Assembly: GCA_035528115.1 (NCBI GenBank)
Contig: DATKZF010000001.1
Location: 226,312 to 266,694 of the forward strand
Direction: 5' to 3'
Length of the DNA stretch: 40,383 nt
Origin: Candidatus Bipolaricaulota bacterium
Lineage (GTDB): Bacteria; Patescibacteriota; Patescibacteriia; UBA11705; DATKZF01
Within the stretch, counting starts at the first letter, position 1. Each line of letters opens with the position of its first letter. The notes below the pieces were generated by a model. The model ran no database searches, was not told the DNA's origin, and saw nothing but the letters and a program-made list of their open reading frames with translations. Below, piece by piece: positions 3,815 through 40,383 of this stretch. The position numbers were made by a program, and so were the translations under genes.

Positions 3815-3817
3815 ATT

Positions 3818-4243: not shown

Positions 4244-4245
4244 AT

Positions 4246-5046
4246 TTATTTATCCTTCTTAGATTTTTTCTTTGGTTTCTTTTCTTCAACTTCTTCCATT
4301 TCTTCAACCTCGGCCGGGACCTCCTCAACCGAAGCTTCGGCCATAACCGGTTCAACCGTTTTCTCTCCCACCAACAAATTAAGATGGTCAATCAATATCT
4401 GCGAAGCCGCTTTAACCGCTTCTTTGGGAGAAATCGTGCCGTCGGTTTCAATATCCATTACCAATTTGTCGTAATTTGTTATATCACCCACGCGAATATC
4501 TTCGCGCTTAAAACCGATATTTTTAAGAGGAGAAAACAAAGCGTCTATTAAAATAGTGCCGATTTCCAAATCCTCTTTGCTTCTTTCTTCCGTAGCCAAA
4601 TAACCTCTGCCTTGACTGACCGTAATTTCCATTTCCAGCTCCGAATCCTTATCCGTTAAACTGGCGATGTGCAAATCCTGATTGATAATTTCAACTTGAG
4701 CGTTTTTATCAATGTCAGCCGCGGTAATTTCCTTTTTACCTTTTACTTTCAATGTTAACTTCTGCGGCTCTTCGGAAAAAACTTTCAATCTCATCAATTT
4801 CAAATTCAGACACACTTCCAAAGCATTTTCCTTAACATTCTTTATGGCTGAAAATTCCTGATCCACGCCTTTTATTTTCACGGCCGTCGCAGCCGCTCCG
4901 GGCAAAGATGACAACAGCACCCTTCTCAAGGCGTTGCCGATCGTTGTGCCGTACCCCATATACATCGGCTCAATAGTCAAAGTGGCCTGATTTTCCTCAG
5001 CGCCATCTTGGTATTGGATTTTTGACGGTAAAAGTAATGATTCCAT
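4246..5046 (-). CDS. rpoA: DNA-directed RNA polymerase alpha subunit, N-terminal domain only (no alpha-CTD)
   Basis: 266 aa. GYGTTIGNALRRVLLSSLPGAA marks the alpha-NTD. After about residue 225 there is only an acidic/Lys tail, EEVPAEVEEMEEVEEKKPKKKSKKDK. Confidence 0.88.
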   Translation of the reverse strand: MESLLLPSKIQYQDGAEENQATLTIEPMYMGYGTTIGNALRRVLLSSLPGAAATAVKIKGVDQEFSAIKNVKENALEVCLNLKLMRLKVFSEEPQKLTLKVKGKKEITAADIDKNAQVEIINQDLHIASLTDKDSELEMEITVSQGRGYLATEERSKEDLEIGTILIDALFSPLKNIGFKREDIRVGDITNYDKLVMDIETDGTISPKEAVKAASQILIDHLNLLVGEKTVEPVMAEASVEEVPAEVEEMEEVEEKKPKKKSKKDK

Positions 5047-6569: not shown

Positions 6570-6575
6570 AATTTT

Positions 6576-6641
6576 TCATCATTTATCACATATCATGGAG
6601 CACATATCATTTGATACATGATTCATATTCCATGTTACATG
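6576..6641. repeat. Degenerate heptamer tandem repeat, locus E1 (family WTYCATG)
   Basis: A 14-nt doublet (cacatatcatggag / cacatatcatttg) is followed by the units atacatg|attcata|ttccatg|ttacatg. It lies between the rpmJ stop and the rpsM start. Confidence 0.6.
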
Positions 6642-6645
6642 AAAA

Positions 6646-6759
6646 TTATCCTTGCCTTTGTTTATGCTTGGGATTTTTGCAAATGACGTGGACTCTTCTT
6701 TTTCGAACCACGATTTTGCAATCTTTACAAATTTTTTTTACGGACGCTTGCACTTTCAT
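6646..6759 (-). CDS. rpmJ: 50S ribosomal protein L36
   Basis: Below the ORF-track size cut-off. Manual translation gives [37 protein letters not shown] (37 aa). Position between infA and rpsM is as expected. Confidence 0.9.
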
Positions 6760-13001: not shown

Positions 13002-13005
13002 ACGG

Positions 13006-13093
13006 CATGAATCATGGAACATGGAGCATGGAACATAACAATATTAAGTTGATCCATGATCTATGATATGTGATACGTGATATGTGATCCATG
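13006..13093. repeat. Heptamer repeat locus E2: two opposed arrays
   Basis: Block a (13006-13036) is catgaat|catggaa|catggag|catggaa|cat. After a 15-nt spacer, block b (13052-13093) is atccatg|atctatg|atatgtg|atacgtg|atatgtg|atccatg. Confidence 0.65.
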
Positions 13094-13119
13094 ATTAAAC
13101 ATCTTATCAAATTATTTCA

Positions 13120-15021: not shown

Positions 15022-15066
15022 GCTTGAGCGGAAAGGCAAGCTTTCCGCTGGGTTAAGGCATTTTTG

Positions 15067-15094
15067 TTTCATGCTACATGTTTCATGTTCCATG
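15067..15094. repeat. Heptamer repeat locus E3
   Basis: tttcatg|ctacatg|tttcatg|ttccatg, abutting the alaS stop codon. It shares the 15-mer tcatgttccatgatt with E4. Confidence 0.6.
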
Positions 15095-15095
15095 A

Positions 15096-16892
15096 TTATT
15101 CCAGCACCGCCTTAATCCTCCTCACCCCGGCCGAACTCGATTCTTCTTTTTTAATTCTGAACTTGCCCAGCTCGCCCGTATGCGTCACATGCGGGCCTCC
15201 GCAGATTTCGCGGGAGAAAATATCATCGCCTTCGCCAACCGTGTACACTTTCACTTTCTCCCCGTACTTTGATTCAAAAACTCCCATGGCTCCGATTTTT
15301 TTCGCTTCATCCAAAGTAATTTCTTCGCATGACACCGGATAATCTTTTTCAATCGCTTCATTGACGTTTTTTTCAACCTCGGCCTTTTGCTCATCAGTCA
15401 TTTTTTCATTATGCGAAAAATCAAATCTCAATCGCTCGGGAGTGATATTGGAACCTTTTTGAAACACTTCATTGCCCAAAACTTTTCGCAAGGCGGCCAG
15501 CATCAAGTGCGCGGCCGTGTGCAGGCGCTTGGTTTCTTCGGACGCGTCGGCCAAACCGCCTTTGAACCTGCCGGCTGACGCGGTTTTTGATAATTCCTGA
15601 TGTTTTTTGAATTCTTCGGCGAATTCTTTTTCATCTATTTCAATGCCGATTTCTTTGGCCATTTCGCTAGTCATTTCCAAGGGAAAGCCATATGTTGAAA
15701 ATAAAATGAAAGCTTCTTTGCCGGAAATATTTTTATCCTTGGCCATTTTGGAAAATTCCCGTTCGCCTTTTTCCAAAGTCATTCGAAACTTTTCTTCTTC
15801 TTTTTTAAGTTCATCGAAAATCTCCGCTTCCCTATTTTTCAATTCAACGTAAGGATCGGAGATCAAATCAACAACCACGCTCGCCACCTCGGCCGTGAAA
15901 TTTCGCTCAATGCCCAGCTGTTTGGCTTGACGAATAGCTCGCCTAATCAATCTTCGCAAAATATAACCTTGATCGACGTTGGACGGCGCCACGGCGTGGT
16001 CATCGCCCAAAATCATGACCGAGGCTTTAAGGTGATCAGCAATGATTCTCATCGAAACGGTTATCTTTTCGCTCTCATCATATTTTTTCCCTGACAATGC
16101 TTCAATTTTTTCAATGATCGGCCAAAAAAGTTCTGTTCGATAATTATCGTCAAAACCGTTCATCACGGCCAAAGTTCGCTCCAGCCCCATGCCGGTGTCA
16201 ACGTTCTTTTGAATCAATTGCTCGTAATTTCCATCAGCGGTTTTATTGTATTGCATGAAAACATCATTCCAGATTTCCACCCAATTTTTCTCGTCGGTTT
16301 GAGGATTGCTGTCCTTTGACGGATTGCCCTCGCCGATGAAATAAAACATTTCCGTGTCAGGACCGCACGGACCTGTCTCGCCTGCCGGTCCCCACCAATT
16401 GTCTTTTTTCCCCAAAAAAACTATTTTGTGGTCTGCTAAGCCCAAATTTTTCCAAACGCCGGCGGACTCATCGTCTTTGGGAGAGTTATCGTCGCCTTCA
16501 AAGCAAGTGATTGCCAATTTTTCAAGCGGCAAGCCCAGCCATTTTTTATCAGTTAAAAATTCAAAGCTCCATTCGATCGCTTCTTTTTTAAAATAATCGC
16601 CGAGCGACCAATTGCCGAGCATTTCAAAAAAAGTGTGGTGAAACGCGTCGCCGACTTCGTCGATATCGTCGGTTCTGACGCATTTTTGAAAATCAACCAG
16701 ACGCTGGCCCTGCGCGTGAGATTCGCCCATCAAATAAGGTACAAGCGGGTGCATGCCGGCCGTGGTGAATAAAACGGTCGGGTCGTTTTCCGGGATCAGC
16801 GAAGCTGAAGCGACTTGTTTGTGGCCTTTACTGACGAAAAATTCAATGTATTTTCGCCTGAGTTCTGAAGCTGTGATTTTATTCATATTCAT
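15096..16892 (-). CDS. alaS: Alanine--tRNA ligase, short form ending at the editing domain (no C-Ala domain)
   Basis: Begins MNMNKITASELRRKYIEFFVSKGH. Editing-domain motifs HTAAHLMLAAL and CGGPHV are present. It ends at GVRRIKAVLE. The track start is a TTG at 16940. Confidence 0.9.
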   Translation of the reverse strand: MNMNKITASELRRKYIEFFVSKGHKQVASASLIPENDPTVLFTTAGMHPLVPYLMGESHAQGQRLVDFQKCVRTDDIDEVGDAFHHTFFEMLGNWSLGDYFKKEAIEWSFEFLTDKKWLGLPLEKLAITCFEGDDNSPKDDESAGVWKNLGLADHKIVFLGKKDNWWGPAGETGPCGPDTEMFYFIGEGNPSKDSNPQTDEKNWVEIWNDVFMQYNKTADGNYEQLIQKNVDTGMGLERTLAVMNGFDDNYRTELFWPIIEKIEALSGKKYDESEKITVSMRIIADHLKASVMILGDDHAVAPSNVDQGYILRRLIRRAIRQAKQLGIERNFTAEVASVVVDLISDPYVELKNREAEIFDELKKEEEKFRMTLEKGEREFSKMAKDKNISGKEAFILFSTYGFPLEMTSEMAKEIGIEIDEKEFAEEFKKHQELSKTASAGRFKGGLADASEETKRLHTAAHLMLAALRKVLGNEVFQKGSNITPERLRFDFSHNEKMTDEQKAEVEKNVNEAIEKDYPVSCEEITLDEAKKIGAMGVFESKYGEKVKVYTVGEGDDIFSREICGGPHVTHTGELGKFRIKKEESSSAGVRRIKAVLE

Positions 16893-28069: not shown

Positions 28070-28118
28070 ATTCATGTTCCATGATTTATGTTTCATGATT
28101 CATGATACGTGATACATG
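28070..28118. repeat. Heptamer repeat locus E4 (7 units)
   Basis: attcatg|ttccatg|atttatg|tttcatg|attcatg|atacgtg|atacatg. It starts 15 nt upstream of the recJ start codon. Confidence 0.65.
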
Positions 28119-28136
28119 AATATTAACCATTTTACT

Positions 28137-30707: not shown

Positions 30708-31058
30708 TTACAGCCGCGAATTGCCGTGCCGATCAGGCTCCAACGCCTCTTTGACCGAACAGTAGCCGTCAGCGACCAGCTCCGACAGCAGGAGCTCACG
30801 CTCGCCCCCGATTTCCCCCTCGAAAAACATATGGCTGACCGGCCGACCATCATCTTCGAGAAGCTGGATCACGGGATCGGATGCTTCCGGATCTTTCACC
30901 TGGACGCATCTGCTCCAACATCTTTCGCCCACGCAGATGATGGGCGGACTATGCCCGCAGAAAGAAAGCACTGCCCTAAAATCGCAGTGCGCGATCTTCT
31001 GGGCGACATTCCAATGCCTGCCAAAGATGGCCTCATCCGATCTGGCTTGTTCACTCAT
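30708..31058 (-). CDS. Hypothetical Cys/His-containing protein, GC-rich island 3 (116 aa)
   Basis: The ATG overlaps the recombinase TGA (ATGA). Contains HCDF...FCGHSPPIICVGERCWSRC. I recognise no family. Confidence 0.45.
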   Translation of the reverse strand: MSEQARSDEAIFGRHWNVAQKIAHCDFRAVLSFCGHSPPIICVGERCWSRCVQVKDPEASDPVIQLLEDDGRPVSHMFFEGEIGGERELLLSELVADGYCSVKEALEPDRHGNSRL

Positions 31059-31888
31059 TTTTCCCCTCCTGAAGTGGGATTGCTATTGCCAAGGCCAGTC
31101 CACTGCGGGGATGTCACTTGAGTGTAAATCTGAGTGGTGCGAATATTCTGATGTCCCGAAAGCTCCTGGACATAGCGAATACTGACTCCGTTTTCGAGTA
31201 AATGGGTGGCAAAGCTGTGGCGGAGCGAATGAAAAGTGGCGTCTTTTTTTATATTCGTTTTCTTTAACGCTTTTTCAAATATCAGCTGGGCCGTTCGAGA
31301 AGTCAACTTCCCTCCCCTCTCGCTTTCAAAAACCAATTCGTCTTTGCCTTTGCCGGCGATCAAATTCAGTAGGTCATTTTTTAATTTTTCCGGAAAAATG
31401 GTCAGGCGATCTTTTCCGCCTTTAGCTTTTTTAACGTGAATGAATAATTGATTCAGATCCAAATCCTTAACCTTCAAATTTATCACCTCGCTCACTCGAA
31501 GGCCGGCGCCGTAAGCGATAGAAACCAATAATTTGTGTTTTTGATTATTGATGGTGTTCATTAACTCGGAAATTTCGGAGCGAGACAGAACCACGGGCAA
31601 TTTTTTCGATCTTTTGGCGAATTTGATATCTATTTTTTGATCTGACTTGATTACCTCATGATAAAAATATTTGATGGAATTCAAATATAGATTCACGGTT
31701 TGCGAAGAAAACCCTTTATCATATTTTTTTAACAAAAATTCCTTAATGGATTGAATATCAAGTTGTTCAAAATCAAGCTTCTTGTAATTGAAATAATCTC
31801 GCAGGCATAAAAGATAGCTTTTGGTTGTTTTAGGACTGTAATTGCGCAATCGCAATTCAATCTTCACCGCGTCCAAATATTTTTGCAT
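31055..31888 (-). CDS. Tyrosine site-specific recombinase, compact Xer-like (277 aa)
   Basis: SAM-like N-terminal domain (RLRNYSPKTTKSYLLCLRDYF). Catalytic motifs are AGLRVSE, KGGKDR, HSLRHSFATHLL and GHQNIRTTQIYTQV. The last 18 codons lie in GC-rich DNA. Confidence 0.88.
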   Translation of the reverse strand: MQKYLDAVKIELRLRNYSPKTTKSYLLCLRDYFNYKKLDFEQLDIQSIKEFLLKKYDKGFSSQTVNLYLNSIKYFYHEVIKSDQKIDIKFAKRSKKLPVVLSRSEISELMNTINNQKHKLLVSIAYGAGLRVSEVINLKVKDLDLNQLFIHVKKAKGGKDRLTIFPEKLKNDLLNLIAGKGKDELVFESERGGKLTSRTAQLIFEKALKKTNIKKDATFHSLRHSFATHLLENGVSIRYVQELSGHQNIRTTQIYTQVTSPQWTGLGNSNPTSGGEK

Positions 31889-31944
31889 AAATTGAGATTT
31901 TTTGATAAAATTATATCCGGAACATAGAATAAATTTATCATAAA

Positions 31945-32007
31945 TTCACATAACAAACAAAATCGGACGCATTATGCGAAATGTTTTCGCATAGAAACCA
32001 GTTAGGC
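31945..32007 (+). other. Primary (attI-like) recombination site A
   Basis: TTCACATAAC box (31945-31954), a small hairpin ATGCGAAA-tgt-TTTCGCAT, then AGAAACCA-GTTAGGC (32001-32007, which matches GTTRRRY). Confidence 0.5.
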
Positions 32008-32041
32008 AAAATGTGGCACAAATTTTTTAACTTTAATTCAC

Positions 32042-32482
32042 ATGAGTATGTCAATTGAACATCGAGAGAATCCTCCACAGAGAGAGCTAATAGTAACAAC
32101 TGTCGATTTATCCAAAGGCTGGGATACCGAATCCATGCGCGATATTCTAATCGAACGGCTAAAAGAGCTTGGTATCTATCAGCCAAACCTGCTTTTTAGA
32201 GGTTTTGATGGTAATAAAATAGAAGTTATCAAACAACATGGGACAGACATTCCTGATGATACAGTTATTTTTTGCTCTACCGAAGGCCAACTTGTTGATG
32301 AATATGCAATGGAAGAATCAGCACTAGATTTTTCTTTAGGACAAGAAAAAGCAGGTTTGGCTGTATACGATGGGGCCAGACTCTTTAAAGATAGTAGTAA
32401 ATATGGTTCAGGATATGAATACCAACCAAAAAAGGGAACCAGTTTTAAGGAGGCTCTTTTAGCCGTTCTGATTTTGGAGTAA
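32042..32482 (+). CDS. Hypothetical protein, cassette 1 (146 aa)
   Basis: ORF with an ATG start. The stop abuts site B. I recognise no family. Confidence 0.55.
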   Translation: MSMSIEHRENPPQRELIVTTVDLSKGWDTESMRDILIERLKELGIYQPNLLFRGFDGNKIEVIKQHGTDIPDDTVIFCSTEGQLVDEYAMEESALDFSLGQEKAGLAVYDGARLFKDSSKYGSGYEYQPKKGTSFKEALLAVLILE

Positions 32483-32647
32483 AATTTGTGCCACACATCG
32501 CCTAACACGCAGTATGCGACTACGTTTTGCTCCGTTTCACTCCGCAAAACTCCGTCCATGTTTGCCCGTGGTAAGCTCCCGCTGGTCGCAAATTTTACCA
32601 CGGGCAAACATCGCATACTGCGAAACGTTATGTGAAATGCATGTTTT
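32481..32647 (+). other. attC/dif-like folded site B (end of cassette 1 / start of cassette 2)
   Basis: GCCTAAC (32500-32506). A 12-bp stem pairs 32508-32519 with 32611-32622. Internal hairpins are at 32524-32550 and 32558-32611 (17 bp). It ends CGAAAC-GTTATGTGAAAT (32621-32638). Confidence 0.6.
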
Positions 32648-32804
32648 ACTTTTGGGCTATCGCCCAGCTCTAAAAAAGAATTTGAATTTTGTTTTTTTAT
32701 TTATTAGAAAGGGGTATAAGGTTTTTTCTCCGCTCCGCTACGAAAACGATTTATTTATAAGGGGAAAACGAATACAATAACATTGCTTAACATGAAAAGA
32801 ATTT

Positions 32805-34613
32805 ATGCCAAAAATTAAGGATATACCAAAAATTGATCGCCCAAGAGAAAGGTTTCTAAAAAAAGGGGCTGACGCACTTTCAAAAAGTGATCTTTTGGCA
32901 ATTCTTTTGGGTAGCGGAATTAAGGGGAAAAATGTTAGGCAGCTTTCTGAGAATATCATTAAAAAATTTGGTAAAAACTTTTTGAATATAACCGTTGATG
33001 ATCTTTTGGAAATTTCAGGAATCGGACAAGCAAAAGCATTGCAAATCACTTCCGCGATTTCATTGGTAAAAAGATTTTACGACGAAAACAAAACCAACGA
33101 GATTGTTATAAAAAATTCTCAAGATATTTTATCCCTTACTTACGATTTAAGAGACAAGAAAAAAGAACATTTAGTTTGTCTTTATTTAAACGCACGAAAT
33201 ATTTTGTTGAGAAAAGAAGTTGTTAGTGTCGGTCTTTTAGATAAGGCATTATTACATCCGAGAGAAATTTTTTATCCTGCAACCGAGCTAAACGCCGCCA
33301 GCGTTATTTTGGTTCACAATCACCCTTCAGGCGATTCTTCACCAAGTGAAAAAGACAATCAAATTATTGAAAAAATCGTGCAGGCTGGCGAAATAATGGG
33401 GATACCAGTCATTGATTTTATTATTATTTCTCAAAACAATCATTGCAGTTTCTACGAGAAGTTAAATAAGCAAAAATCAAGTATCGATTATGTTGCAGAC
33501 GGAATACAAGGAACTCTTTTTGCGATGCTTGAAACTGAGCGACCAACCTATGAAATAACCGCCGAAAAAATCCAAGAAAATTATTTTTATATCCCACAAG
33601 TAAAAGAAAACCATCTTCAATTACACAATCGCAGATATATTGGCAACAAACACAAGTTAATTGAATGGATTTTTTCTATAATAAATAAAGAATGCAGTGG
33701 AAATTCTTTTGCGGATATTTTTGCAGGAACGGGTGTTGTATCCGCTGTTGCAACCAAACACTTCGAAAAAGTTTTATTAAACGACTTTCTCCATTCAAAT
33801 TACGCAATATATCGGGCTTTTTTTGGAAACGAGGCATGGGATAAAGTCAAAATCGATAACATTATTAAGAATTATAACAATATTTATGGCGATGACTTAG
33901 AAGAAAATTATTTTTCTAAAAATTTCGGTGGTAAATTTTTTAGTAAAAATTCAGCGAAAATCATCGGCTTTATTCGTGAAAATATAGAGGAAAACAGGAA
34001 AAACTTAACCGAAAGAGAATACTATATGTTGATCGCCTCATTGCTTTATACTGCCGATAAAATCGCCAACACAGTTGGACATTTTGACGCTTATTTCAAG
34101 AAGGAATTTGTAAATGATAGCTTTTTTATGAAACCGATTGATCCGATAGATACGCAAGAAATATCAATTTTTCAAGAAGATACAAACAATCTGGCAAAAA
34201 AAATAAATGCCGATGTCGTTTATATCGACCCACCCTACAACTCAAGACAATACAGCAGATTCTACCATGTGCTTGAAACATTAACTAAGTGGGATAAACC
34301 AATACTTTTTGGCGTAGCACTAAAACCAGAGCCAGAGAATATGAGCGACTACTGCCGAGCTAATGCCAAAGATAAATTTGCGGAACTCGTGAAAGACCTT
34401 GACGCTAAATATTTGGTTGTTTCATACAATAACACTTACGATTCAAAAAGTAATTCCTCAAAAAACAAAATCACGCTCCAAGAGATTGAACAGATTTTGC
34501 AGACAAAAGGACCAACCAAAGTTTTTGAAAAAAAATATAGACATTTTAATGCAGGCAATACAAATTTCAATAATCACAAGGAATACCTGTTTGTAACAAA
34601 ATCAAAGATATGA
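32805..34613 (+). CDS. Fusion protein: RadC-like JAB/MPN domain + N6-adenine DNA methyltransferase (D12/Dam class, M.FokI-like)
   Basis: Residues 1 to about 225 are RadC-like (DRPRERFLKKGADALSKSDLLAILLGSG, VHNHPSGDSSPSEKD). Residues from about 260 to 602 are methyltransferase (RYIGNKHKL, FADIFAGTGVV, VYIDPPYNSRQY). Confidence 0.8.
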   Translation: MPKIKDIPKIDRPRERFLKKGADALSKSDLLAILLGSGIKGKNVRQLSENIIKKFGKNFLNITVDDLLEISGIGQAKALQITSAISLVKRFYDENKTNEIVIKNSQDILSLTYDLRDKKKEHLVCLYLNARNILLRKEVVSVGLLDKALLHPREIFYPATELNAASVILVHNHPSGDSSPSEKDNQIIEKIVQAGEIMGIPVIDFIIISQNNHCSFYEKLNKQKSSIDYVADGIQGTLFAMLETERPTYEITAEKIQENYFYIPQVKENHLQLHNRRYIGNKHKLIEWIFSIINKECSGNSFADIFAGTGVVSAVATKHFEKVLLNDFLHSNYAIYRAFFGNEAWDKVKIDNIIKNYNNIYGDDLEENYFSKNFGGKFFSKNSAKIIGFIRENIEENRKNLTEREYYMLIASLLYTADKIANTVGHFDAYFKKEFVNDSFFMKPIDPIDTQEISIFQEDTNNLAKKINADVVYIDPPYNSRQYSRFYHVLETLTKWDKPILFGVALKPEPENMSDYCRANAKDKFAELVKDLDAKYLVVSYNNTYDSKSNSSKNKITLQEIEQILQTKGPTKVFEKKYRHFNAGNTNFNNHKEYLFVTKSKI

Positions 34614-35515
34614 CTACCAAGATAAGAAGATCCCCATTATTTTATGTCGGGGATAAATACAAACTGATGAAACAACTGGAAAATTTATTTCCTAAAGAAA
34701 TAAATAATTTTTACGAACCTTTTGTCGGCGGAGGTACGGTATTTTTGAATATTGAAGCAAAAAAGTATTTTCTCAATGACATAGACAAACACCTGATAAA
34801 TATTCAAAAACTTTTAATCGCCAGTTCAAAAAATCCAGAAAAGTTTTTCAAGGATGCCGAAAAAATAATCCACAAATATAAATTTTCGCATTCATATAAA
34901 AATGATATTGTCCCCGATTCGTTAAAAAAGGAGTTTAAAAAAACCTATTACGCAAGATTTAATAAGGAAGGTTACGATAAATTAAGAATGAGCGTAAATA
35001 ATTATCAAAAAAACGACCCCTTGATTTTATACATTTTGCTTATTTATGGATTTAATAGAATGTTAAGATTCAATGGCGGAGGAAAATTTAATTTACCTGT
35101 TGGCAATGTTGATTTTAATAAAAATGTTATAAACGCCTTAAACGGCTACTTTGATTTTGTACAAAATAAAAAAATATCTATAACATCAAAAGATTTTAAA
35201 AAGTTTTTTTCTGACAAAAAATATTCAAAAAACGATTTTGTATATTTAGACCCTCCATACTTAATATCCGCAAGCGAATATAATAAATTATGGAACAAGG
35301 AATTAGAAGCTGATTTATTAAAAATGATCGATGTCTTAGACAAAAAAGGCGTTAAATTTGCCTTATCAAATGTTACTCACTATAACGGGAGTAAAAATGA
35401 TTTATTATTGGAATGGATGAAAAAATACAAGGTACACAAAATTGAAAGCAATTATATTAATTATCATAACAACGGCAAAAAGATAATTAAAGAAGTTTTG
35501 ATTACTAACTATTAA
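34610..35515 (+). CDS. N6-adenine DNA methyltransferase (Dam/D12 class)
   Basis: 301 aa. Contains YVGDKYKL, EPFVGGGTVFLN and VYLDPPYLIS. An ATGA overlap couples it to the upstream methyltransferase. Confidence 0.85.
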   Translation: MTTKIRRSPLFYVGDKYKLMKQLENLFPKEINNFYEPFVGGGTVFLNIEAKKYFLNDIDKHLINIQKLLIASSKNPEKFFKDAEKIIHKYKFSHSYKNDIVPDSLKKEFKKTYYARFNKEGYDKLRMSVNNYQKNDPLILYILLIYGFNRMLRFNGGGKFNLPVGNVDFNKNVINALNGYFDFVQNKKISITSKDFKKFFSDKKYSKNDFVYLDPPYLISASEYNKLWNKELEADLLKMIDVLDKKGVKFALSNVTHYNGSKNDLLLEWMKKYKVHKIESNYINYHNNGKKIIKEVLITNY

Positions 35516-35519
35516 AATT

Positions 35520-37037
35520 ATGACTAAACGACAATCTGAATACAAACCATTGCTATTTACAACAACAATGAGAAATCCTGAACGGTTGAAGGATTTTTTG
35601 ACCGTACTTGCGGAATATGACGGCGAAATTTTAACAAACGAAATTATTGATAAAGTCGCCAAATCCTTAATACAAAAAGGATTATACCAGCCCATGAAAG
35701 TATCTTCGGCCGTAAAAGATAAATGGAAAAATGAGATTGAATTAAGCGAAACTGAAACCGAAAAAGTATTTTCTGACAACCCTCAAAGCCACAAAGAAGC
35801 AGGGTTTGAAAAAGGATGGCCATCAAGATTCGATACTTGGTTTAAAATTGCCAAAGAACTTGGCTTCGTTTGGTATTGGCAAAATGAAGAAATAAAATTT
35901 TCCGAAAGCGGAAATATGTTATTAGACAAAGAAAAGCCAGAAAATGAGTTAATGGTTTTTGCCAATGCTTTTGCGAAATATCAACGCCAAAATCCATTTC
36001 GTCGCGTTTTAAATAAAAATGTTCCGCTTATTTTACTTATACAAACCATAAAACTTTTGAATAATGACCCAGCATACAAGGGGGCTGGTATATCCAGATC
36101 GGAAATACCATTGTTGTTGTGTTGGAAAAACGATAATGCTGAAAGTTTATATCGAGAAATTAAAAAATTACGCAAAAAACATGGTTATACACCGAGCAAC
36201 GAAGTGATTTTAGATATTTGCTACGAATTACTAAACGAAACAAAGAGAGATGATAATTCAATCCTCGGTGATTATCCTGACGATTTTATACGAAAAATGC
36301 GTTTAACTGGCTTACTTTCTTTGCGTGGCGGTGGTCGTTTCATAGATATAAACTCAAAAGAATCTGCAACTGTGGATTATATTTTGAAAAATTATATTTC
36401 CTACAAAGAATTTGAAACGGAAAAAGAATTTTTTGAATATATCGGACAAGTTGATCACGATTTAATCTCAACGCTTACCGTATTTGAAGCACCAGCAAAA
36501 ACCACAAAAGCAGAATTGGAAAAATGGGTTGATCATTATGCTTGGGATTCAATTAAAACCGAACTTCTTAATTTGGCACAGAAAAAATCTTCTAGCGATG
36601 ATATTTTGAAAATCATTGAACAACCTTTGCGATTGGAATTTTTAACTTCATTGGCAATTCTCAAAAAATTACCGAATGTTATTGTAAAACCTAACTTTAT
36701 ATCCGATGACGAAGGACTGCCAACAAGTTTTGCGTCTGGCGGAAGCCCTGACATTGAATGTTTAGAAGAAAAAGACACGGTTTTGATCGAAGTAACTTTA
36801 CTGACTGGAACGCAACAGCATATCAGAGAGTCGTTTTCTATACATCGACACCTTGAAGAATATGTAAAAAAAGGCACAAAATCATATTCCGTGTTTATCT
36901 CGCCAAAATCTTTTATTGATACCGAACGCTACTTTGATTTTATCAAAAAGGATGGTTTGGAAGTGAGGATCTCAAATATTGATAAATTTGTTAATAGCCT
37001 TGAAATGAAAACGACATTAAGCGAGGCAACCCTTTAA
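35520..37037 (+). CDS. AlwI-family (type IIS-like) restriction endonuclease
   Basis: 505 aa. The N-terminus LLFTTTMRNPERLKDFL, RKMRLTGLLSLRGGGRFIDIN and GGSPDIECLEEKDTVLIEVTLLTGTQQ resemble AlwI/N.BstNBI-family blocks (PD...EVT) as I recall them. Confidence 0.7.
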   Translation: MTKRQSEYKPLLFTTTMRNPERLKDFLTVLAEYDGEILTNEIIDKVAKSLIQKGLYQPMKVSSAVKDKWKNEIELSETETEKVFSDNPQSHKEAGFEKGWPSRFDTWFKIAKELGFVWYWQNEEIKFSESGNMLLDKEKPENELMVFANAFAKYQRQNPFRRVLNKNVPLILLIQTIKLLNNDPAYKGAGISRSEIPLLLCWKNDNAESLYREIKKLRKKHGYTPSNEVILDICYELLNETKRDDNSILGDYPDDFIRKMRLTGLLSLRGGGRFIDINSKESATVDYILKNYISYKEFETEKEFFEYIGQVDHDLISTLTVFEAPAKTTKAELEKWVDHYAWDSIKTELLNLAQKKSSSDDILKIIEQPLRLEFLTSLAILKKLPNVIVKPNFISDDEGLPTSFASGGSPDIECLEEKDTVLIEVTLLTGTQQHIRESFSIHRHLEEYVKKGTKSYSVFISPKSFIDTERYFDFIKKDGLEVRISNIDKFVNSLEMKTTLSEATL

Positions 37038-37049
37038 TTATTATTACCT

Positions 37050-38060
37050 ATGAAAAAAATTGATAAAAAAGAATTGAAAGAAATAATCCAAAGCGGACAT
37101 ATCAACCTGCTTATTGGTTCTGGCTGTTCACTCGATTATCTTACAACTCTCAAAGATATTGAAGATCGGATGAATAATGAAGAGACCAAAGGGCAGGCGC
37201 AAAAGGATTACTACAAATTAATAAAAAAATCCAAAGCCATCCTCGACGAATCGCTTGAAATTAATATTACCGAGAAAACAAAATTGACCAAAACAAAGCA
37301 AAACTATGATTCTTTTTTAGGATTTTGGGCTAACACAATTTCCAGTCGATTTTTGCATATCGTAAATAAGCAAGTGAATATTTTCACCACAAATTTCGAT
37401 ATGTTTATGGAGGATTCCTGTGAAAGGTTAGCTATTCCATACAATGATGGGTTTGCCGGTCAAATAAATCCGAATTTTAGTGTTGCAAACTTTAACAAAG
37501 TTCAGAGATATAAGAGTTTGCAGTTTGACAATACTTCAGACATTCCACTTTTTAACATTATCAAGCTACACGGATCAATTTCTTGGAAAGCAGAAAACGA
37601 AAAAATTGTTTATTCAAACGGAAAGCATATTGCCGATGACCTCGATGACAAAACAGGAAATGATTTTGATGACGAATATAAGAAGATTGCTGTTATCAAT
37701 CCAAATGCGGAAAAACACTTTGAGACTGTTCTTGATACAAACTATGCCTCAATGTTGCGGAAGTTTACTTTGGAATTAGAAAAAGAAAATAGTGTTTTAA
37801 TGCTGATTGGTTTTTCCTTAGCGGATAAACATATCAAAAATCTCTTGGATGGAGTGATGAAGTCTAACCCTACTTTAGTCGTCGTTTATTTCTCGTATTC
37901 TCAATACGACGAAACTGCTGACAAATTAAATGAAAAACAAAATTCAAATCTATACATAATTTCCCCAGAAGCAGATTTTTCTTTTGAGAAAACGACAGAT
38001 TATCTTTCTCAGATTTTTGTTAATTCTGATATTCCCGAACAAAATGAAGATGAAAATTAA
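37050..38060 (+). CDS. SIR2-like domain protein (SIR2_2 type), defence-associated
   Basis: 336 aa. Contains LLIGSGCSLDYL, IFTTNFDMFMED and IIKLHGSISW. Confidence 0.8.
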   Translation: MKKIDKKELKEIIQSGHINLLIGSGCSLDYLTTLKDIEDRMNNEETKGQAQKDYYKLIKKSKAILDESLEINITEKTKLTKTKQNYDSFLGFWANTISSRFLHIVNKQVNIFTTNFDMFMEDSCERLAIPYNDGFAGQINPNFSVANFNKVQRYKSLQFDNTSDIPLFNIIKLHGSISWKAENEKIVYSNGKHIADDLDDKTGNDFDDEYKKIAVINPNAEKHFETVLDTNYASMLRKFTLELEKENSVLMLIGFSLADKHIKNLLDGVMKSNPTLVVVYFSYSQYDETADKLNEKQNSNLYIISPEADFSFEKTTDYLSQIFVNSDIPEQNEDEN

Positions 38061-39951
38061 TTTCAATTTACAAGAACGATTAATGAATGATTCCGTTTTT
38101 ACAATCGGAAGCGTTTTTAGTGTAAAAGGAAAAGATATTATCGTTAAAGTTAATAAAGATAAAAATCTTCCGCATTTGTTTTTTAAGGGCAGAACTATTA
38201 AAAATGTATCTGTCGGACTGTCAAATTATGTAAAAATCCTCAAAGGATTTACCGAGATTATTTGTAAGGTTGAGGGTGAATATCTTGAAGAAGATAAATA
38301 CCAAAAGAACAAAAAGTACACAAACGAAAAGCAAAAGATAGATCGCTTCCTCAATGTTTCCGTTTTTGGTTTTTATGATAATGACAGGAAATTCCAACAC
38401 GGTATAAAAGAAATGCCACTTATCGGAAGTGAGTGTAAACTGCTTTCAAGAGATGAATTTGAAAAACTTCATCAGCTTTCTGGAAAAGATGAACTTTCTA
38501 TCCACCTTGGGTCTTTGATAGACGAAGAAACTCAAAATATTTTTATATCCGTTAAAAAACTGTTTGCTGGACACATTGGGATCTTTGGTAATACAGGTTC
38601 TGGAAAATCCAATACTCTTGCAAAAATGTACACAGAATTATTTAGGTTAGAATTAAATGATAATTTCAAGACTAAATCCAAGTTTGTTTTTATAGACTTC
38701 AATGGAGAGTACTCAAAAGATAGCGATGACGAAATTTTAACGAAAAATAAAATCGTTTATAAATTGAGAACAAAAGATAATACGGGAAAAAAATATCCCA
38801 TATTGAAAACAGAAATTGAAAAACTGGAACTTTTATCTATTTTACTCGATGCCACAGAGAAAACGCAGCAACCATTTTTACACAGAGCGATAGATAGTAG
38901 GGATTGGTTTGATACTGATAACGAAAATTTTCGCAAGGAAAGGGATAATTTATTGAGAAATCTAAAAATTATTCTAAATAAAAATGAACCGAATTTCAAT
39001 CAACCATTTTTGAAAAAATTTGTTGCTGATTTCAAGAGTATTGGTGTGCAAATGCTGAAAAAAGAATACGAGCAAGAGAAAAATATTGATGATATAACCT
39101 ATAACATAACCCAAAAGAGTTTTATGGTGAGCGGGAAGTATCATAATGATAGTATTACTGATACTAGCCGCCAAATAGATATTGCCAATGAGTATTTTGA
39201 TATAAAAATTGAATCATTTACAGATCTACAAAAAATCCAGTTTAAAATATTTGATCAGTATTATCATGAAATACTGAATGGGTATGCAAATCAAGAGCAC
39301 ATAAGCCCCCTAATTGGAAGATTGAAAAAGAGATTTGATATGTTGGATAAAGTTTTTGATATTAAAGACTCCATAACAGAAGAAGCTAATTCAAATATTC
39401 AGGTTGTTGACCTTAAAAATGTAAATTTAGAGATTAAAAAAGTCATTCCACTTTTAATCTGCAAAACAAATTACGACGAGCAGAAAAATAAAAGAGACAC
39501 TGATAAGGATAATTCGCTAAATATCATAATTGACGAAGCTCACAATATTCTCTCAGAAAACTCCAACAGAGAATCGGAATCTTGGAAAGATTATCGACTA
39601 GAAACATTTGAAGAAATAATAAAAGAAGGAAGAAAATTTGGTGTTTTTCTAACAGTCGCCAGTCAAAGACCGTCTGATATTTCGCCAACAATTATCTCCC
39701 AATTACACAATTATTTCATTCACAGGCTAATGAATGATAATGATTTGAAAGCGATAAACAAAGCTGTTAGCTATCTTGATAAACTTTCCTTTGATTCAAT
39801 CTCTAATCTTTCTGTGGGTTGTTGTTTTATTGCAGGACAAATGACTCAATTCCCGTTGTCAGTAAAGGTTAAATTGCTTGATGAGAATGAACGCCCACAG
39901 AGCGAAACTATTGACCTTGATAAATTATGGAAAAAACATGAAGATTCATAA
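38044..39951 (+). CDS. HerA/FtsK-like (DUF87) ATPase, partner of SIR2
   Basis: Walker A is GIFGNTGSGKSNTLAKM and Walker B is NIIIDEAHNIL. Also KEGRKFGVFLTVASQRPSDISPTIISQLHNYFIHRL. The track start is a TTG at 37984. I prefer the ATG at 38044 (or 38050), which overlaps the SIR2 stop. Confidence 0.82.
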   Translation: MKMKINFNLQERLMNDSVFTIGSVFSVKGKDIIVKVNKDKNLPHLFFKGRTIKNVSVGLSNYVKILKGFTEIICKVEGEYLEEDKYQKNKKYTNEKQKIDRFLNVSVFGFYDNDRKFQHGIKEMPLIGSECKLLSRDEFEKLHQLSGKDELSIHLGSLIDEETQNIFISVKKLFAGHIGIFGNTGSGKSNTLAKMYTELFRLELNDNFKTKSKFVFIDFNGEYSKDSDDEILTKNKIVYKLRTKDNTGKKYPILKTEIEKLELLSILLDATEKTQQPFLHRAIDSRDWFDTDNENFRKERDNLLRNLKIILNKNEPNFNQPFLKKFVADFKSIGVQMLKKEYEQEKNIDDITYNITQKSFMVSGKYHNDSITDTSRQIDIANEYFDIKIESFTDLQKIQFKIFDQYYHEILNGYANQEHISPLIGRLKKRFDMLDKVFDIKDSITEEANSNIQVVDLKNVNLEIKKVIPLLICKTNYDEQKNKRDTDKDNSLNIIIDEAHNILSENSNRESESWKDYRLETFEEIIKEGRKFGVFLTVASQRPSDISPTIISQLHNYFIHRLMNDNDLKAINKAVSYLDKLSFDSISNLSVGCCFIAGQMTQFPLSVKVKLLDENERPQSETIDLDKLWKKHEDS

Positions 39952-39957
39952 ACAAAT

Positions 39958-40010
39958 AAAAGGCAAAAATTCCCTCCCCTTAAACCCCTTCCTTTTTGCC
40001 TTTTATTTGA
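39958..40010 (+). terminator. Rho-independent terminator after the HerA gene
   Basis: 12-bp stem AAAAGGCAAAAA/TTTTTGCCTTTT with a 23-nt C-rich loop, followed by a T-run. Confidence 0.65.
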
Positions 40011-40023
40011 AGAGAATAAGGAG

Positions 40024-40072
40024 TTTTGGATTTTGGGCATTCACCCCTAACCCCTCTGCCCAAAATCCAAAA
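40024..40072. repeat. Perfect 16-bp hairpin with a C-rich loop
   Basis: TTTTGGATTTTGGGCA / TGCCCAAAATCCAAAA. The loop is ttcacccctaacccctc. Confidence 0.6.
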
Positions 40073-40133
40073 CAAAAAAAACAAAATTCAAATTCTTTTT
40101 TAGAGCAATCCCGATTGCTATCGGGATTAAAGT

Positions 40134-40254
40134 AAAACATGCACATCACATAACACGGCATATCTGGTTACGGCTTTTATATAAAAGCCTCCACCCATAT
40201 TTGCCTCCGCTACGCTACGGCAAACATCAGATATACCGAAACGTTATGTGAAAT
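40134..40254 (+). other. attC/dif-like folded site C (end of cassette 2)
   Basis: AAAACATGCACATCACATAAC (40134-40154). A stem pairs 40157-40166 with 40228-40237. Internal hairpins are at 40172-40189 and 40197-40227. It ends CGAAAC-GTTATGTGAAAT (40237-40254). Confidence 0.6.
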
Positions 40255-40296
40255 ATTTTTTAATTTTTTTGCTACCATAGAAAAAGACCGTCGGGG

Positions 40297-40383
40297 TTAC
40301 CAACGGTCCTGGGTTGAGGATCTGCTTGTAGTGTTATTCTTCTTCGGATTTGGAGTCCGTGGATGACCAAGGAAAATCATGAG
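40297..40383 (-). CDS. C-terminal end of an unknown ORF entering from the right edge
   Basis: The minus-strand frame reads ...LMIFLGHPRTPNPKKNNTTSRSSTQDRW*. The stop is embedded in the terminator GACCGT..ACGGTC + TTTTT. Too short to assign. Confidence 0.3.
   Translation of the reverse strand, partial: LMIFLGHPRTPNPKKNNTTSRSSTQDRW

Follow-up and report, generated by a model that had tools for sequence, protein, structure and literature searches.

An integron-like array of putative gene cassettes beside an Xer-type recombinase gene in a patescibacterial genome

The recombinase gene, site A and two cassettes

The window analysed here is a stretch of 40,383 nucleotides from a Candidatus Bipolaricaulota assembly (GCA_035528115.1) that GTDB places in Patescibacteriota. 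It contains a gene for an Xer-type tyrosine recombinase followed, on the opposite strand, by two gene-bearing units flanked by sites A and B and by sites B and C, respectively. These units lack a recombinase of their own and have dif-like flanks, which satisfies the definition of an IMEX, and the layout of compact cassettes in one orientation, adjoining a recombinase gene on the opposite strand, is also that of an integron.

31055-31888, minus strand: Xer-type tyrosine recombinase gene, 277 aa, 'Cand' Xer group, without the IntI-specific insertion (Pfam, NCBIfam, structure alignment)
31902-31930, plus strand: promoter-like TTGATA-17-TAGAAT, directed through site A into the cassettes (consensus scan, 10/12 matches)
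31943-32012, plus strand: site A, dif-like entry site (role inferred; same layout in 53/84 related loci)
31945-31954, plus strand: upstream arm copy of site A, TTCACATAAC, complementary to GTTATGTGAA of site C
31973-31993, plus strand: site A hairpin, TATGCGAAA/TTTCGCATA
31984-31994, plus strand: site A left arm, TTTTCGCATAG
31995-32001, plus strand: site A 7-nt centre, AAACCAG, whose last base G opens the right box
32002-32012, plus strand: site A right arm, TTAGGCAAAAT, already part of cassette 1
32002-32627, plus strand: cassette 1, ORF146 and the site B core up to the crossover G (repeat I18, end match)
32001-32026 and 32481-32506: terminal inverted repeats of cassette 1, 26 nt (I18, 88% complementary; end match 23/26)
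32042-32482, plus strand: ORF146 (cassette 1), no known family
32628-40243, plus strand: cassette 2, 7.5 kb, GC 31-35%, ending with the site C core up to G
32627-32698 and 40075-40154: terminal inverted repeats of cassette 2, about 72-80 nt (I3, 32 nt, 100%; I12, 26 nt, 92%)
32805-34613, plus strand: RadC-Dam fusion (cassette 2; Pfam)
34610-35515, plus strand: Dam methyltransferase (cassette 2; Pfam)
35520-37037, plus strand: AlwI-family endonuclease (cassette 2; Pfam)
37050-38060, plus strand: SIR2 (cassette 2; Pfam)
37984-39951, plus strand: HerA-like ATPase (cassette 2; Pfam)

The recombinase matches Pfam Phage_integrase (3.7e-42) and a SAM-like N-terminal domain. Its best NCBIfam model is XerA_Arch (215.6 bits, cut-off 220), followed by the integron integrase model TIGR02249 (192 bits, cut-off 265), XerC and XerD (177 and 170, far below their cut-offs) and PRK15417 (126, cut-off 435). 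Relatives number 4920 at E<=1e-40, with top matches 64-76% identical, and the top relatives whose source is named are labelled Patescibacteria, Parcubacteria or Vogelbacteria. Xer-like enzymes of candidate phyla are placed in a 'Cand' subgroup by Smyshlyaev et al. In the alignment to VchIntIA (2a3v), query residues 4-175 match 5-179 and residues 201-261 match 248-308, leaving 25 recombinase residues opposite 68 of IntI. IntI therefore has about 43 extra residues that the recombinase lacks, and the IntI-specific domain (the I2 helix region near patch III) is absent from the recombinase in this alignment.

A role for this enzyme as chromosomal dimer resolvase can only be assumed, because its gene neighbourhood is not conserved (lepA follows the gene in 2/50 loci) and its position relative to the terminus is undetermined. 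Conserved synteny was dropped as support for a housekeeping function, the order xer-lepA-recJ being kept at one locus (L006) and in only 2/50 loci overall. At the array, GC skew passes from negative to positive, coincident with the switch in gene strand, and was rejected as a locator of terminus or origin, being confounded by gene orientation. As for a tRNA or tmRNA as integration target, the window contains neither.

Site A meets the layout of two inverted arms of about 11 bp around a 6-8-bp centre, reading TTTTCGCATAG-AAACCAG-TTAGGCAAAAT, and its arms match the published Xer-binding arms ACTTCGTATAA and TTATGCGAAAT (PMC7399989). Upstream of the 53 related recombinase genes with this layout, the family consensus is ACTTCG(C/T)ATAA-TAACGAG-TTANNNGAAAT. 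The promoter-like site just before it may correspond to the integron Pc promoter, on evidence that is weak because three such sites were seen in the scan against 3.2 expected by chance.

ORF146 has no match in Pfam or NCBIfam. Judged by its domain matches, the cargo of cassette 2 is a restriction-modification system with SIR2-HerA, a putative defence cassette. A five-gene cassette of 7.5 kb is atypical for integrons. The terminal repeats of cassette 2 each carry a small internal hairpin, and the hairpins differ in sequence. GC content is 31-35% in the cassettes against 42-48% in the core, and no recombinase is encoded in either cassette of the window or among 10 cassette proteins from other loci.

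Sites B and C and their wider family

Sites B and C are longer relatives of site A, which has a single 9-bp hairpin and on its own folds only weakly (z -2.1).

32495-32638, plus strand: site B, attC-like (fold z -7.3; member of alignments A3 and A4)
32495-32506, plus strand: site B left box, ACATCGCCTAAC
32508-32519 with 32611-32622, plus strand: site B main stem
32524-32530 with 32544-32550, plus strand: site B hairpin 1
32558-32574 with 32594-32610, plus strand: site B hairpin 2
32623-32626, plus strand: site B unpaired AAAC
32627-32638, plus strand: site B right box, GTTATGTGAAAT, part of cassette 2
40143-40254, plus strand: site C, attC-like (fold z -4.7)
40143-40154, plus strand: site C left box, ACATCACATAAC
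40157-40166 with 40228-40237, plus strand: site C main stem
40172-40189, plus strand: site C hairpin 1
40200-40205 with 40219-40224, plus strand: site C hairpin 2
40238-40242, plus strand: site C unpaired GAAAC
40243-40254, plus strand: site C right box, GTTATGTGAAAT

A preliminary description, made from the letters alone, had proposed that B and C share boxes and keep one fold through compensatory changes, and every string that it quoted for the two sites occurs in the window. The left box reads CACATCGCCTAACACG at 32494-32509 in B and CACATCACATAACACG at 40142-40157 in C, and a scan of the 40 kb for exact matches returned these two sites only. The right box CGAAACGTTATGTGAAAT lies at 32621-32638 and 40237-40254, and AACGTTATGTGAAAT has just two exact matches. 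The middle string of B is TCCGTCCATGTTTGCC...GGCAAACAT, that of C TCCACCCATATTTGCC...GGCAAACAT. The main stems do differ on both partners at once, with 12 bp formed by CGCAGTATGCGA/TCGCATACTGCG in B and nine of ten pairs by GGCATATCTG/CAGATATACC in C (one C.A mismatch), and the first inner hairpin is GTTTTGC/GCAAAAC in B and GGCTTTTATATAAAAGCC in C, also as described. DNA folding yields the multi-branch (three-way) structure of that description for both sites, at -37.9 kcal/mol (z -7.3) for B and -18.1 kcal/mol (z -4.7) for C, with 0/200 shuffles as good in either case. The asymmetry that it had pointed out, between 1-2 unpaired nt 5' and 4-5 unpaired nt (GAAAC) 3', is real and proved to be general. 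Within the window, the loop motif CTCCGCT is restricted to this locus.

About 60 further copies of the site were found, on one strand, upstream of related Xer-type recombinase genes of about 270 aa at 35 metagenomic loci. Their 5' part consists of ACATC-NNN-YAAC, 2 unpaired nt, a 10-bp stem and 1-3 variable hairpins, and their 3' part of A(C/A)TTC-NNN-ATA, 5 unpaired nt and GTT-RNNN-GAAAT. Sites are 76-208 nt long and often form three-way junctions; a 2x2 mismatch and a 2-versus-5-nt bulge are conserved. The same sites, obeying the pairing rule set out below, are present in phage contigs, none of the 11 phage stretches fetched with sites encodes an Xer homologue, and no close relative of the recombinase was found anywhere in the viral collection searched. 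By sequence, the system to which B and C belong recurs in dozens of related metagenomic genomes and in some phages.

A covariation test on more copies had been suggested in the preliminary description, and in 43 copies chosen by their boxes alone the pairings are kept by compensatory changes. All ten pairs of the main stem are changed on both sides; the covariation score of 0.284, against 0.140 for shuffled alignments, was reached by 0/500 shuffles, and slid-alignment controls gave 0.03-0.11. The three inner bases of the central region covary with the 5' half as well. Upstream of related recombinase genes, a rule based on structure alone located 49 sites on the expected strand, compared with 5 on the opposite strand and 2 in shuffled sequence; the 452 kb downstream of the gene yielded 1 plus 5. 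At least one site is carried by 24/31 loci with at least 3 kb of upstream sequence. The automatic walk along the arrays ended early, and array sizes are lower bounds, since the closing-stem rule misses subclasses with an extra base in the 3' arm or a 4-nt bulge.

The family sites fulfil the attC-type description of an imperfect palindrome R''-L''...L'-R' with AAC and GTT cores, structure kept over sequence and unpaired features. The classical consensus GTTRRRY/RYYYAAC is matched in part, GTTAGGC fitting and GTTATGT not. Covariation, location, cassette pairing and unpaired features together support the original proposal of a folded DNA site conserved in structure and not in sequence. Folding in the cell, the strand that reacts and the identity of the enzyme acting on B and C are inferred, none of them having been shown.

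Cassette ends, exchange and competing readings

In these arrays, a site's left box and some 14-20 nt of flank are reverse-complementary to the preceding site's right box with its flank; left box and flank of site C, for example, are complementary to the flank right of B at 24/26 positions. In 34/60 adjacent site pairs, the 4-mer that varies in the left box finds its exact complement in the preceding right box, with a mean of 5.1 and a maximum of 14 in the permutation control. With the preceding right flank as partner, 20/24 outer pairs covary (score 0.475 vs 0.159 shuffled), and with the site's own right box as partner the variable positions are mostly unpaired. The exact rule fails in the other 26 pairs, most of which look like missed intermediate sites or single changes, not each of them resolved. 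As far as sequence alone can establish, this pairing is integron cassette logic, with the putative crossover inside CGTT. An exchange point there, at the junction of central region and right arm, implies that the right box and the next ~15-60 nt belong to the following cassette.

The left box of a cassette and its own right box meet only in the excised circle, where they form a stem of 25-80 bp. Excised sites reconstituted in this way are predicted to fold better than the integrated forms in 32/33 cases, and their bottom strand folds better in 31/33. A duplicated cassette at locus L067 has two sites that are identical up to ...GATACGTT and divergent after it, and loci L012 and L013 share an identical stretch that runs from the recombinase gene up to the GTTA of site A and are unrelated beyond. 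Across the aligned copies, the central region always stays with the left arm (L'), which, together with the covariation of the inner bases, fits a single strand exchange. Public soil runs with the locus (n=3) offered unitigs only, broken at a 32-nt inverted repeat, and are uninformative on excision; the joints reported in them have sides of 20-36 letters that lie within repeated boxes and are equally uninformative. A look-up of the recombinase in public runs returned only the same 22-kb unitig and nothing past the end of the window.

Cassettes with cognate ends (n=33) have a median length of 689 bp and mostly hold a single ORF; 45/50 ORFs point the same way. Cargo is diverse. The end modules of cassette 2 are common to cassettes of L012, L016, L030, L059, L061 and L071, which do not share its cargo, and BLAST among the cassettes found no shared cargo, only shared ends, apart from the tandem duplicate at L067.

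Sites B and C are therefore probably, with some room left for doubt, recombination sites of mobile gene cassettes, forming an integron-like array in Patescibacteria (CPR) that is served by the adjacent Xer-type recombinase through attC-like capture of folded sites. The dif-like site A, with arms equal to known Xer-binding arms, counts in favour of Xer service; the pairing of enzyme and sites rests on adjacency alone. By sequence, the array runs from the recombinase gene through site A, on the opposite strand, to cassettes, each closed by a long and imperfectly palindromic end (left box, first half of the stem, variable hairpins, second half of the stem, 5-nt bulge, right box). In the proposed scheme, an excised or incoming cassette would be used as a folded single strand mimicking a dif duplex, with one Xer monomer bound per arm and the conserved 2x2 mismatch and 2-versus-5-nt bulge marking the strand. 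Xer would then swap one pair of strands with site A or another cassette site, leaving a junction that replication would resolve, as it does for attC x attI and for CTX-phi. New cassettes would enter at A; in the window, the defence cassette would have entered first and ORF146 second. The folding, strand choice and chemistry of such Xer-driven capture remain inference, without demonstration. Several points count against the folded-site reading. Neither a cassette circle nor an unoccupied site junction was seen, the I2 region, thought to be needed by integron integrases for folded sites, is absent, and the central region differs between A (7 nt) and B and C (9 nt); the 26 pairs that depart from the exact rule, the atypical size of cassette 2, the unconserved gene neighbourhood and an enzyme-site pairing by adjacency alone weigh on the same side.

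The alternative that survives best, though it is unlikely, is that these are Xer modules of the IMEX or pdif type acting only as duplexes. The 3' halves (arm, 9 nt, arm) would be double-stranded dif-like sites that recombine as direct repeats, and the palindromic 5' half would have some other use, be it cruciform formation, termination or service as a second dif-like site in inverted orientation. The 3' halves do read as dif-like sites with canonical arms, the 5' halves taken as opposite-strand duplex show 11-6-11 spacing on inspection of the alignment, duplex recombination at the 3' halves predicts identical cassette boundaries, and there are published precedents both for IMEX arrayed in tandem at dif and for modules with inverted pdif sites on either side. 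However, this leaves unexplained the compensatory pairing in the stem, in the inner central region and for at least 14 nt past the arms into the cassette ends. Nor does it explain why the outer left box keeps the form ACATC and does not copy the right box, or why recombination never parts the central region from the left arm, and a two-step duplex exchange could not be completed between a 7-nt and a 9-nt centre.

Layout, AAC/GTT core triplets, cassette logic, single-ORF cassettes and orientation bias would all suit a classical integron, with a true IntI and attC sites, and the recombinase scores higher against the integron integrase model (192 bits) than against XerC or XerD and matches VchIntIA in the PDB just as well as it matches XerA. 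A classical integron is nonetheless very improbable: the integrase score is below the family cut-off of 265, and the insertion around patch III that defines the family (PMC9668308, PMC8138268) is absent (25 residues vs 68). Both arms are present at the entry site, which is fully dif-like, and the site boxes and bulge geometry are unlike attC. The array is not a classical integron, and integron family membership is unmet, because the recombinase lacks the IntI-specific domain; the attC likeness of B and C is functional only.

The preliminary description had left room for a folded RNA. Strong folding directly after ORFs, in the direction of transcription, would suit a structured RNA at gene ends, for instance a small RNA, a terminator or an element of a 3'-UTR. 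The DNA part of that claim held; the RNA part is very unlikely, given that the partners of the outer helix lie whole cassettes apart (up to 7.5 kb), pairing only after excision, and that Rfam offers no match. Rfam 15 had no match at gathering score in the whole window and none even at E<=1 over A and B, with only chance-level microRNA-type matches over C; there is no terminator-like T-run, and the sites go together with one recombinase gene. A reading as miniature transposons or IS-like units, which some unidentified transposase would move and whose targets would be the cores, would explain the 25-80-nt terminal inverted repeats of each cassette and the end modules common to cassettes with different cargo, yet can hardly be entertained with no transposase in or near the cassettes, no target duplications seen, cassette ends that coincide with Xer arms, and units that are confined to a single locus and a single strand, always arrayed head to tail.

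Relation to known recombination systems

Among the closest known parallels of the proposed folded-site array are integrons, those of archaea described by Ghaly et al. 2022 (PMC9668308) among them, in which the recombinase gene likewise reads away from mostly single-ORF cassettes in the same orientation. Cassettes of both kinds end in an imperfect palindrome R''-L''...L'-R' with ...AAC and GTT... cores, cross over at G|TT with R' donated by the neighbouring cassette, keep structure over sequence with conserved unpaired features and variable terminal structures, and have two strands that differ in fold stability. Several features set the present system apart from integrons. Its recombinase has the size of an Xer and no I2 insertion, and its entry site is dif-like in full. 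Each arm, 11-12 nt long, contains a variable triplet (ACATC-NNN-YAAC, GTT-RNNN-GAAAT), only half of the central spacer is paired, with a 2-versus-5-nt bulge, the outer stem reaches 15-60 nt into the cassette ends, the sites are 76-208 nt and often three-way junctions, and the host belongs to Patescibacteria.

CTX-phi and other IMEX also lack a recombinase of their own, exploit host XerCD at dif and can form tandem arrays. CTX-phi uses a folded single-stranded hairpin that imitates dif; its centre is bulged, and one strand exchange takes place, which replication then resolves. Here, one recombinase replaces XerC plus XerD, the elements include small gene cassettes as well as islands, and the folded-site architecture is common to all of them. 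CTX-phi integration is described as intrinsically irreversible, whereas fold predictions indicate that the paired form is restored here in the excised circle. The pdif (dif) modules of Acinetobacter plasmids are genes bounded by inverted Xer-binding sites with near-identical arms (ACTTCGTATAA and TTATGCGAAAT), and the pdif sites are plain 28-bp duplexes that neighbouring modules share. The present arrays are chromosomal, adjoin the recombinase gene, and have between cassettes two inverted half-palindromes with covarying stems and complementarity that extends past the arms. XerS/difSL, XerH/difH and archaeal XerA resemble the system in using a single Xer-type enzyme; difSL lies immediately upstream of xerS (PMC1914069), and archaeal XerA gives the best profile and structure matches of the recombinase. 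No cassette array or folded site is mentioned for these three in the parts of the sources available.

The shift of integron integrases from duplex to folded single-strand substrates has been attributed to gain of the I2 helix (PMC4792948, PMC7790495). An Xer-sized enzyme with a full attC-like array, if confirmed, would mean that integron logic does not need the I2 domain, and would provide a natural system for studying the substrate transition from Xer to IntI. A broader proposal is tentative and somewhat more open to doubt than to belief: Patescibacteria and some phages may use an Xer-type recombinase as integron integrase, in a widespread dif-based capture platform that handles folded sites without I2, arose as an independent invention or as a living Xer-to-IntI transition, and forms a main route for accessory and anti-phage genes. 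No description of Xer-linked cassette arrays in Patescibacteria or CPR was found in full-text literature searches, which did not cover subscription-only papers. Should the reading of B and C be correct, CPR, a very large and mostly uncultured group with tiny genomes, would have a general platform for gene acquisition, and restriction-modification, SIR2-HerA defence and phage genomes would be tied to one exchange network. The boxes ACATC-NNN-YAAC and GTT-RNNN-GAAAT would then serve as simple delimiters of accessory genes in CPR genomes.

Many of the fetched metagenomic contigs begin no more than ~250 nt from the recombinase gene; breaks of this kind would be explained if arrays at the locus were variable or repeated.

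Sites predicted to fold and their pairing partners

A tyrosine recombinase gene adjoins an array in which two gene blocks, or cassettes, lie between three sites:

31055-31888, minus strand: tyrosine recombinase gene, 277 aa, directly left of A (Pfam Phage_integrase, 3.7e-42)
31943-32012: site A, the dif-like, proposed entry site, a shorter relative of B and C with a single 9-bp hairpin and a weak fold on its own
between A and B, plus strand: ORF146, 146 aa, of no known family
32495-32638: site B, attC-like and predicted to fold
between B and C, plus strand: RadC-Dam methyltransferase fusion, second Dam-type methyltransferase, AlwI-family endonuclease, SIR2-like protein, and HerA-like ATPase genes
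40143-40254: site C, attC-like and predicted to fold

The strings quoted for these sites in the preliminary description were all found where it placed them, and the outer left box (CACATC.C.TAACACG) and right box ((CG)AAACGTTATGTGAAAT) have just two occurrences each in the 40-kb window, one in B and one in C. As single-stranded DNA, B (32494-32638) folds at -37.9 kcal/mol (z -7.3) and C (40142-40254) at -18.1 kcal/mol (z -4.7), with 0 of 200 shuffles as good for either, and the folds are alike, comprising an outer box pair, a main stem of 10-12 bp, and two inner hairpins. As had been proposed, B and C have different sequences in the main stem and in the first hairpin, and both keep the pairing. 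Neither Rfam matches nor tRNA genes were found in the window. Hairpin loops rich in CTCCGCT/CGCTTCGCT occur at 32728-32744 and 40205-40216, and within the window this motif is confined to this locus.

Further copies came from a Moranbacteria MAG locus, two neighbourhoods of close homologues of the recombinase, and 80 metagenomic loci. Boxes alone defined 43 complete sites, and a purely structural search (AAC, then a stem of 10 bp in fixed register, then GTT, with boxes not required) returned 49 on the expected strand, 5 on the other strand, and 2 from shuffled sequence; the boxes were present in almost every one of the 49. The 452 kb beyond the other side of the recombinase gene held one site on the same strand and five on the opposite strand, and left box ACATCNNNYAAC counts were 71 and 3 upstream of the gene versus 2 and 3 downstream. 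Of 31 loci whose upstream sequence extends to 3 kb or more, 24 have at least one site. The 5′ half of a site runs ACATC-NNN-YAAC, two unpaired bases, and a 10-11-bp stem (xxx-TAT-xxx-G), followed by one to three variable hairpins and a 3′ half of A(C/A)TTC-NNN-ATA-xxx, five unpaired bases (GATAC, GAAAC, or TAAAC), and GTT-RNNN-GAAAT, for a total of 76-208 nt; judged by eye, the 3′ arm is longer by one base in about nine of the 43 sites, and the bulge is 4 nt in a few. From this order, the 3′ half can be read as arm, 9 nt, arm, with canonical Xer arms, and the 5′ half as its imperfect complement.

The claim that structure is kept over sequence held on these additional copies, as all 10 stem pairs change on both sides among the 43 box-defined sites, with stem covariation of 0.284 versus 0.140 in shuffles (0 of 500 reaching it) and 0.03-0.11 in slid controls. 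Against the right box of the same site, variable positions of the left box mostly stay unpaired (15, 25, and 22 of 43). When the partner was instead taken as the preceding site's right box plus 14 nt of flank (59 sites), 20 of 24 outer pairs covaried, variable positions were paired in 43-47 of 59, and the covariation score rose to 0.475, versus 0.159 shuffled and 0.085-0.155 slid. An exactly complementary 4-mer joins 34 of 60 adjacent site pairs (permutation mean 5.1, maximum 14 in 5000), and most failures look like intermediate sites that were missed, or like a change of one base between flanks that match elsewhere. Nearly every pair conserves two mismatches at fixed positions, where GAAAT faces ACATC.

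The same rule is visible within the window, where a repeat scan found that the 26 nt running up to and including the left box of B (32481-32506) are the reverse complement of 26 nt opening with the right box of A (32001-32026), and the 80 nt running up to and including the left box of C (40075-40154) that of 72 nt opening with the right box of B (32627-32698), the latter pair containing a perfect 32-nt stretch and a small hairpin that differs in sequence between arms. Each gene block is thus bounded by inverted repeats at its ends, and a site's left box has its match in the preceding site and not in its own right box, which, at the level of sequence, is the appearance of integron cassettes. 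In integrons, the crossover falls within the right box (G|TT), and the rest of the cassette's own right box stays behind at the upstream junction. The upstream arm copy of A, TTCACATAAC, matches the right box of C, GTTATGTGAA, consistent with both cassettes having entered a single ancestral site, the large cassette before ORF146.

An Xer-type recombinase beside a dif-like site

The best NCBIfam model for the recombinase is archaeal-type XerA (215.6 bits, cut-off 220), followed by integron integrase (192 bits, cut-off 265). In an alignment to the Vibrio integron integrase (IntI) structure, 25 residues of the window enzyme face 68 of IntI. The window enzyme thus lacks the IntI-specific insertion, which is treated as defining integron integrases, archaeal ones included (PMC9668308; PMC8138268), and on this ground the system is not taken as a classical integron. 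The latter study places Xer-related enzymes of candidate phyla in a separate 'Cand' subgroup, without mention of cassettes. The recombinase family is both very large, with 4920 proteins at E<=1e-40, and well conserved, the best 120 being 64-76% identical to the window recombinase, and most of those with source names are labeled Patescibacteria, Parcubacteria, or Vogelbacteria; one reference-genome match is the Moranbacteria MAG (60% identity). The enzyme is assumed to be the chromosomal dimer resolvase. Its gene neighbors are not conserved among loci, and at 31-32 kb the GC skew shifts from about -0.1 up to about +0.05, inseparably from coding-strand bias, as the larger ORFs left of the array are all on the minus strand and the cassette genes all on the plus strand.

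The layout of site A recurs, on the strand opposite the recombinase gene, in nearly every upstream region of sufficient length, with the consensus TTCG(C/T)ATAA..., about 25 nt, then (TATACGAAAACAC)TTCG(C/T)ATA-A(T/A)AAC(G/C)AG-TT(A/G)NNN(G/C)AAAT; as a regular expression it matches 53 of 84 upstream regions. By their sequence, the arms ACTTCG(C/T)ATAA and TTANNNGAAAT are classical Xer-binding arms; published XerC/XerD substrate oligonucleotides read ACTTCGTATAA-TCGCCA-TTATGTTAAAT and ATTTCGCATAA-GGCGTA-TTATGCGAAAT (PMC7399989). Site A adjoins the recombinase gene upstream, similar to XerS/difSL, for which a position of the dif site directly upstream of its recombinase gene is the rule (PMC1914069). 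A promoter-like site matching by consensus only, TTGATA-17-TAGAAT (31902-31930), is aimed into the array. Many relatives have an 'empty' unit directly after site A, comprising a right box, a CTCCGCT/CGCTTCGCT-type loop, and a complementary left box (e.g., L014, L049-L052, L055, and L084).

Crossover position and inferred strand exchange

In locus L067, an 835-bp cassette encoding a methyltransferase-like protein is perfectly duplicated in tandem (121-956 and 1084-1919), and its two closing sites are identical through ...GATACGTT before continuing into different right boxes; the sites differ only after CGTT. Loci L012 and L013, from different samples, are identical from the recombinase gene to the GTTA of site A and unrelated beyond. 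Covariation with the 5′ half extends to the central region's three inner bases, so the center always travels with the left arm. Together, these observations place the crossover inside CGTT, at the right-arm boundary, and fit one pair of strand exchanges, not two. A two-step duplex reaction could not be completed by partners with centers of 7 nt (A) and 9 nt (B and C).

The locus layout, covarying palindromes, neighbor rule, breakpoint position, link to one recombinase gene, and dif-type arms are established as features of sequence, and the mechanism built on them is inferred. An excised or incoming cassette would act as a folded single strand mimicking dif, with Xer monomers bound to its two paired arms and with the reactive strand marked by the conserved mismatch and bulge. 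One strand pair would be exchanged between the cassette and site A or another cassette site, and the junction may be resolved by replication, by analogy with attC x attI and CTX-phi. Excised-site reconstitutions folded better than integrated versions in 32 of 33 cases, and the bottom strand folded better than the top in 31 of 33. The runs holding the locus exist only as unitig sets that break at the 32-nt repeat, and no circle or empty site was seen.

Cargo, viral contigs, and distribution

The B-C cassette (32805-39951) is a compact defense island with all genes on one strand, and the GC content of the cassette part of the window is 31-35% versus 42-48% for the 31 kb to the left. Among 33 cassettes with cognate ends (median 689 bp, range 251-7516 bp), 22 hold a single ORF; 45 of 50 ORFs are aimed away from the recombinase gene, and their starts are mostly less than about 75 nt from the right box. 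Cargo elsewhere includes NUDIX, cytosine methyltransferase, MazG-like, RibD_C/DHFR-like, APH-type kinase, VanW, LysE, a methyltransferase, a 2′-5′ RNA ligase family protein, and DUF5680. What multi-gene cassettes of different loci have in common is limited to modules at the two ends, about 140 nt on the left and 70-150 nt on the right, and does not include cargo. These modules, found at 32627-32830 and about 40011-40154 in the window and in L001, L008, L012, L016, L030, L059, L061, and L071, might act as a promoter or as a signal for replication or packaging; the left 'leader' includes GGGGTATAAGG, a hairpin, and then AAAACGATTT.

Sequence right of C (40243-40383) has about twice the depth of the remaining locus in the source runs, and over its first 30 nt it shows full identity to the end of another array from that sample (L005 1-30, reverse strand); the recombinase of this second array is only 76% identical to that of the window. 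The depth and the 30-nt identity hint at a cassette common to two arrays, and prove nothing.

Scanning IMG/VR with the 3′-half pattern returned 11 loci (L088-L098), most with genuine sites that obey the neighbor rule and have ORFs close behind (e.g., L091 346-376 and 3502-3532; L089 5853-7405). One is a piece of a tailed-phage genome with large terminase, portal, and head protease genes, and another has a DnaB-like helicase gene bracketed by sites. None of the 11 stretches encodes an Xer homolog, and a search of the viral collection for recombinase relatives found none above about 42% identity. Applied to 712 kb of unrelated viral loci, the structure rule produced 13 matches, both strands together. 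Four of these, with further sites recognized by eye, form an array (152-2866) on viral-collection contig L114, upstream of an Xer-sized recombinase (3643-4392) 33% identical to that of the window; its AAC...GTT palindromic sites have boxes unlike the B/C family and obey the neighbor rule. Either the principle is more widely distributed, as this contig would then show, or its array is that of a classical integron.

The literature searched, which did not cover non-open papers, describes integrons, IMEX elements, pdif modules, and single-Xer systems, and no account of cassette arrays beside Xer in Patescibacteria was found there. Many metagenomic contigs start less than about 250 nt upstream of the recombinase gene (L007, L013, L023, L029, L043, L051-L056, and others). 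Assemblies seem to break at these arrays, and array content is thus probably under-represented in MAGs. Elsewhere in the window, intergenic 7-nt periodic repeats, NNNCATG, occur at the 5′ ends of several minus-strand genes (6571-6651, 13003-13102, 15065-15104, and 28074-28128), some pairs being mutually inverted, and may be regulatory or promoter-associated.
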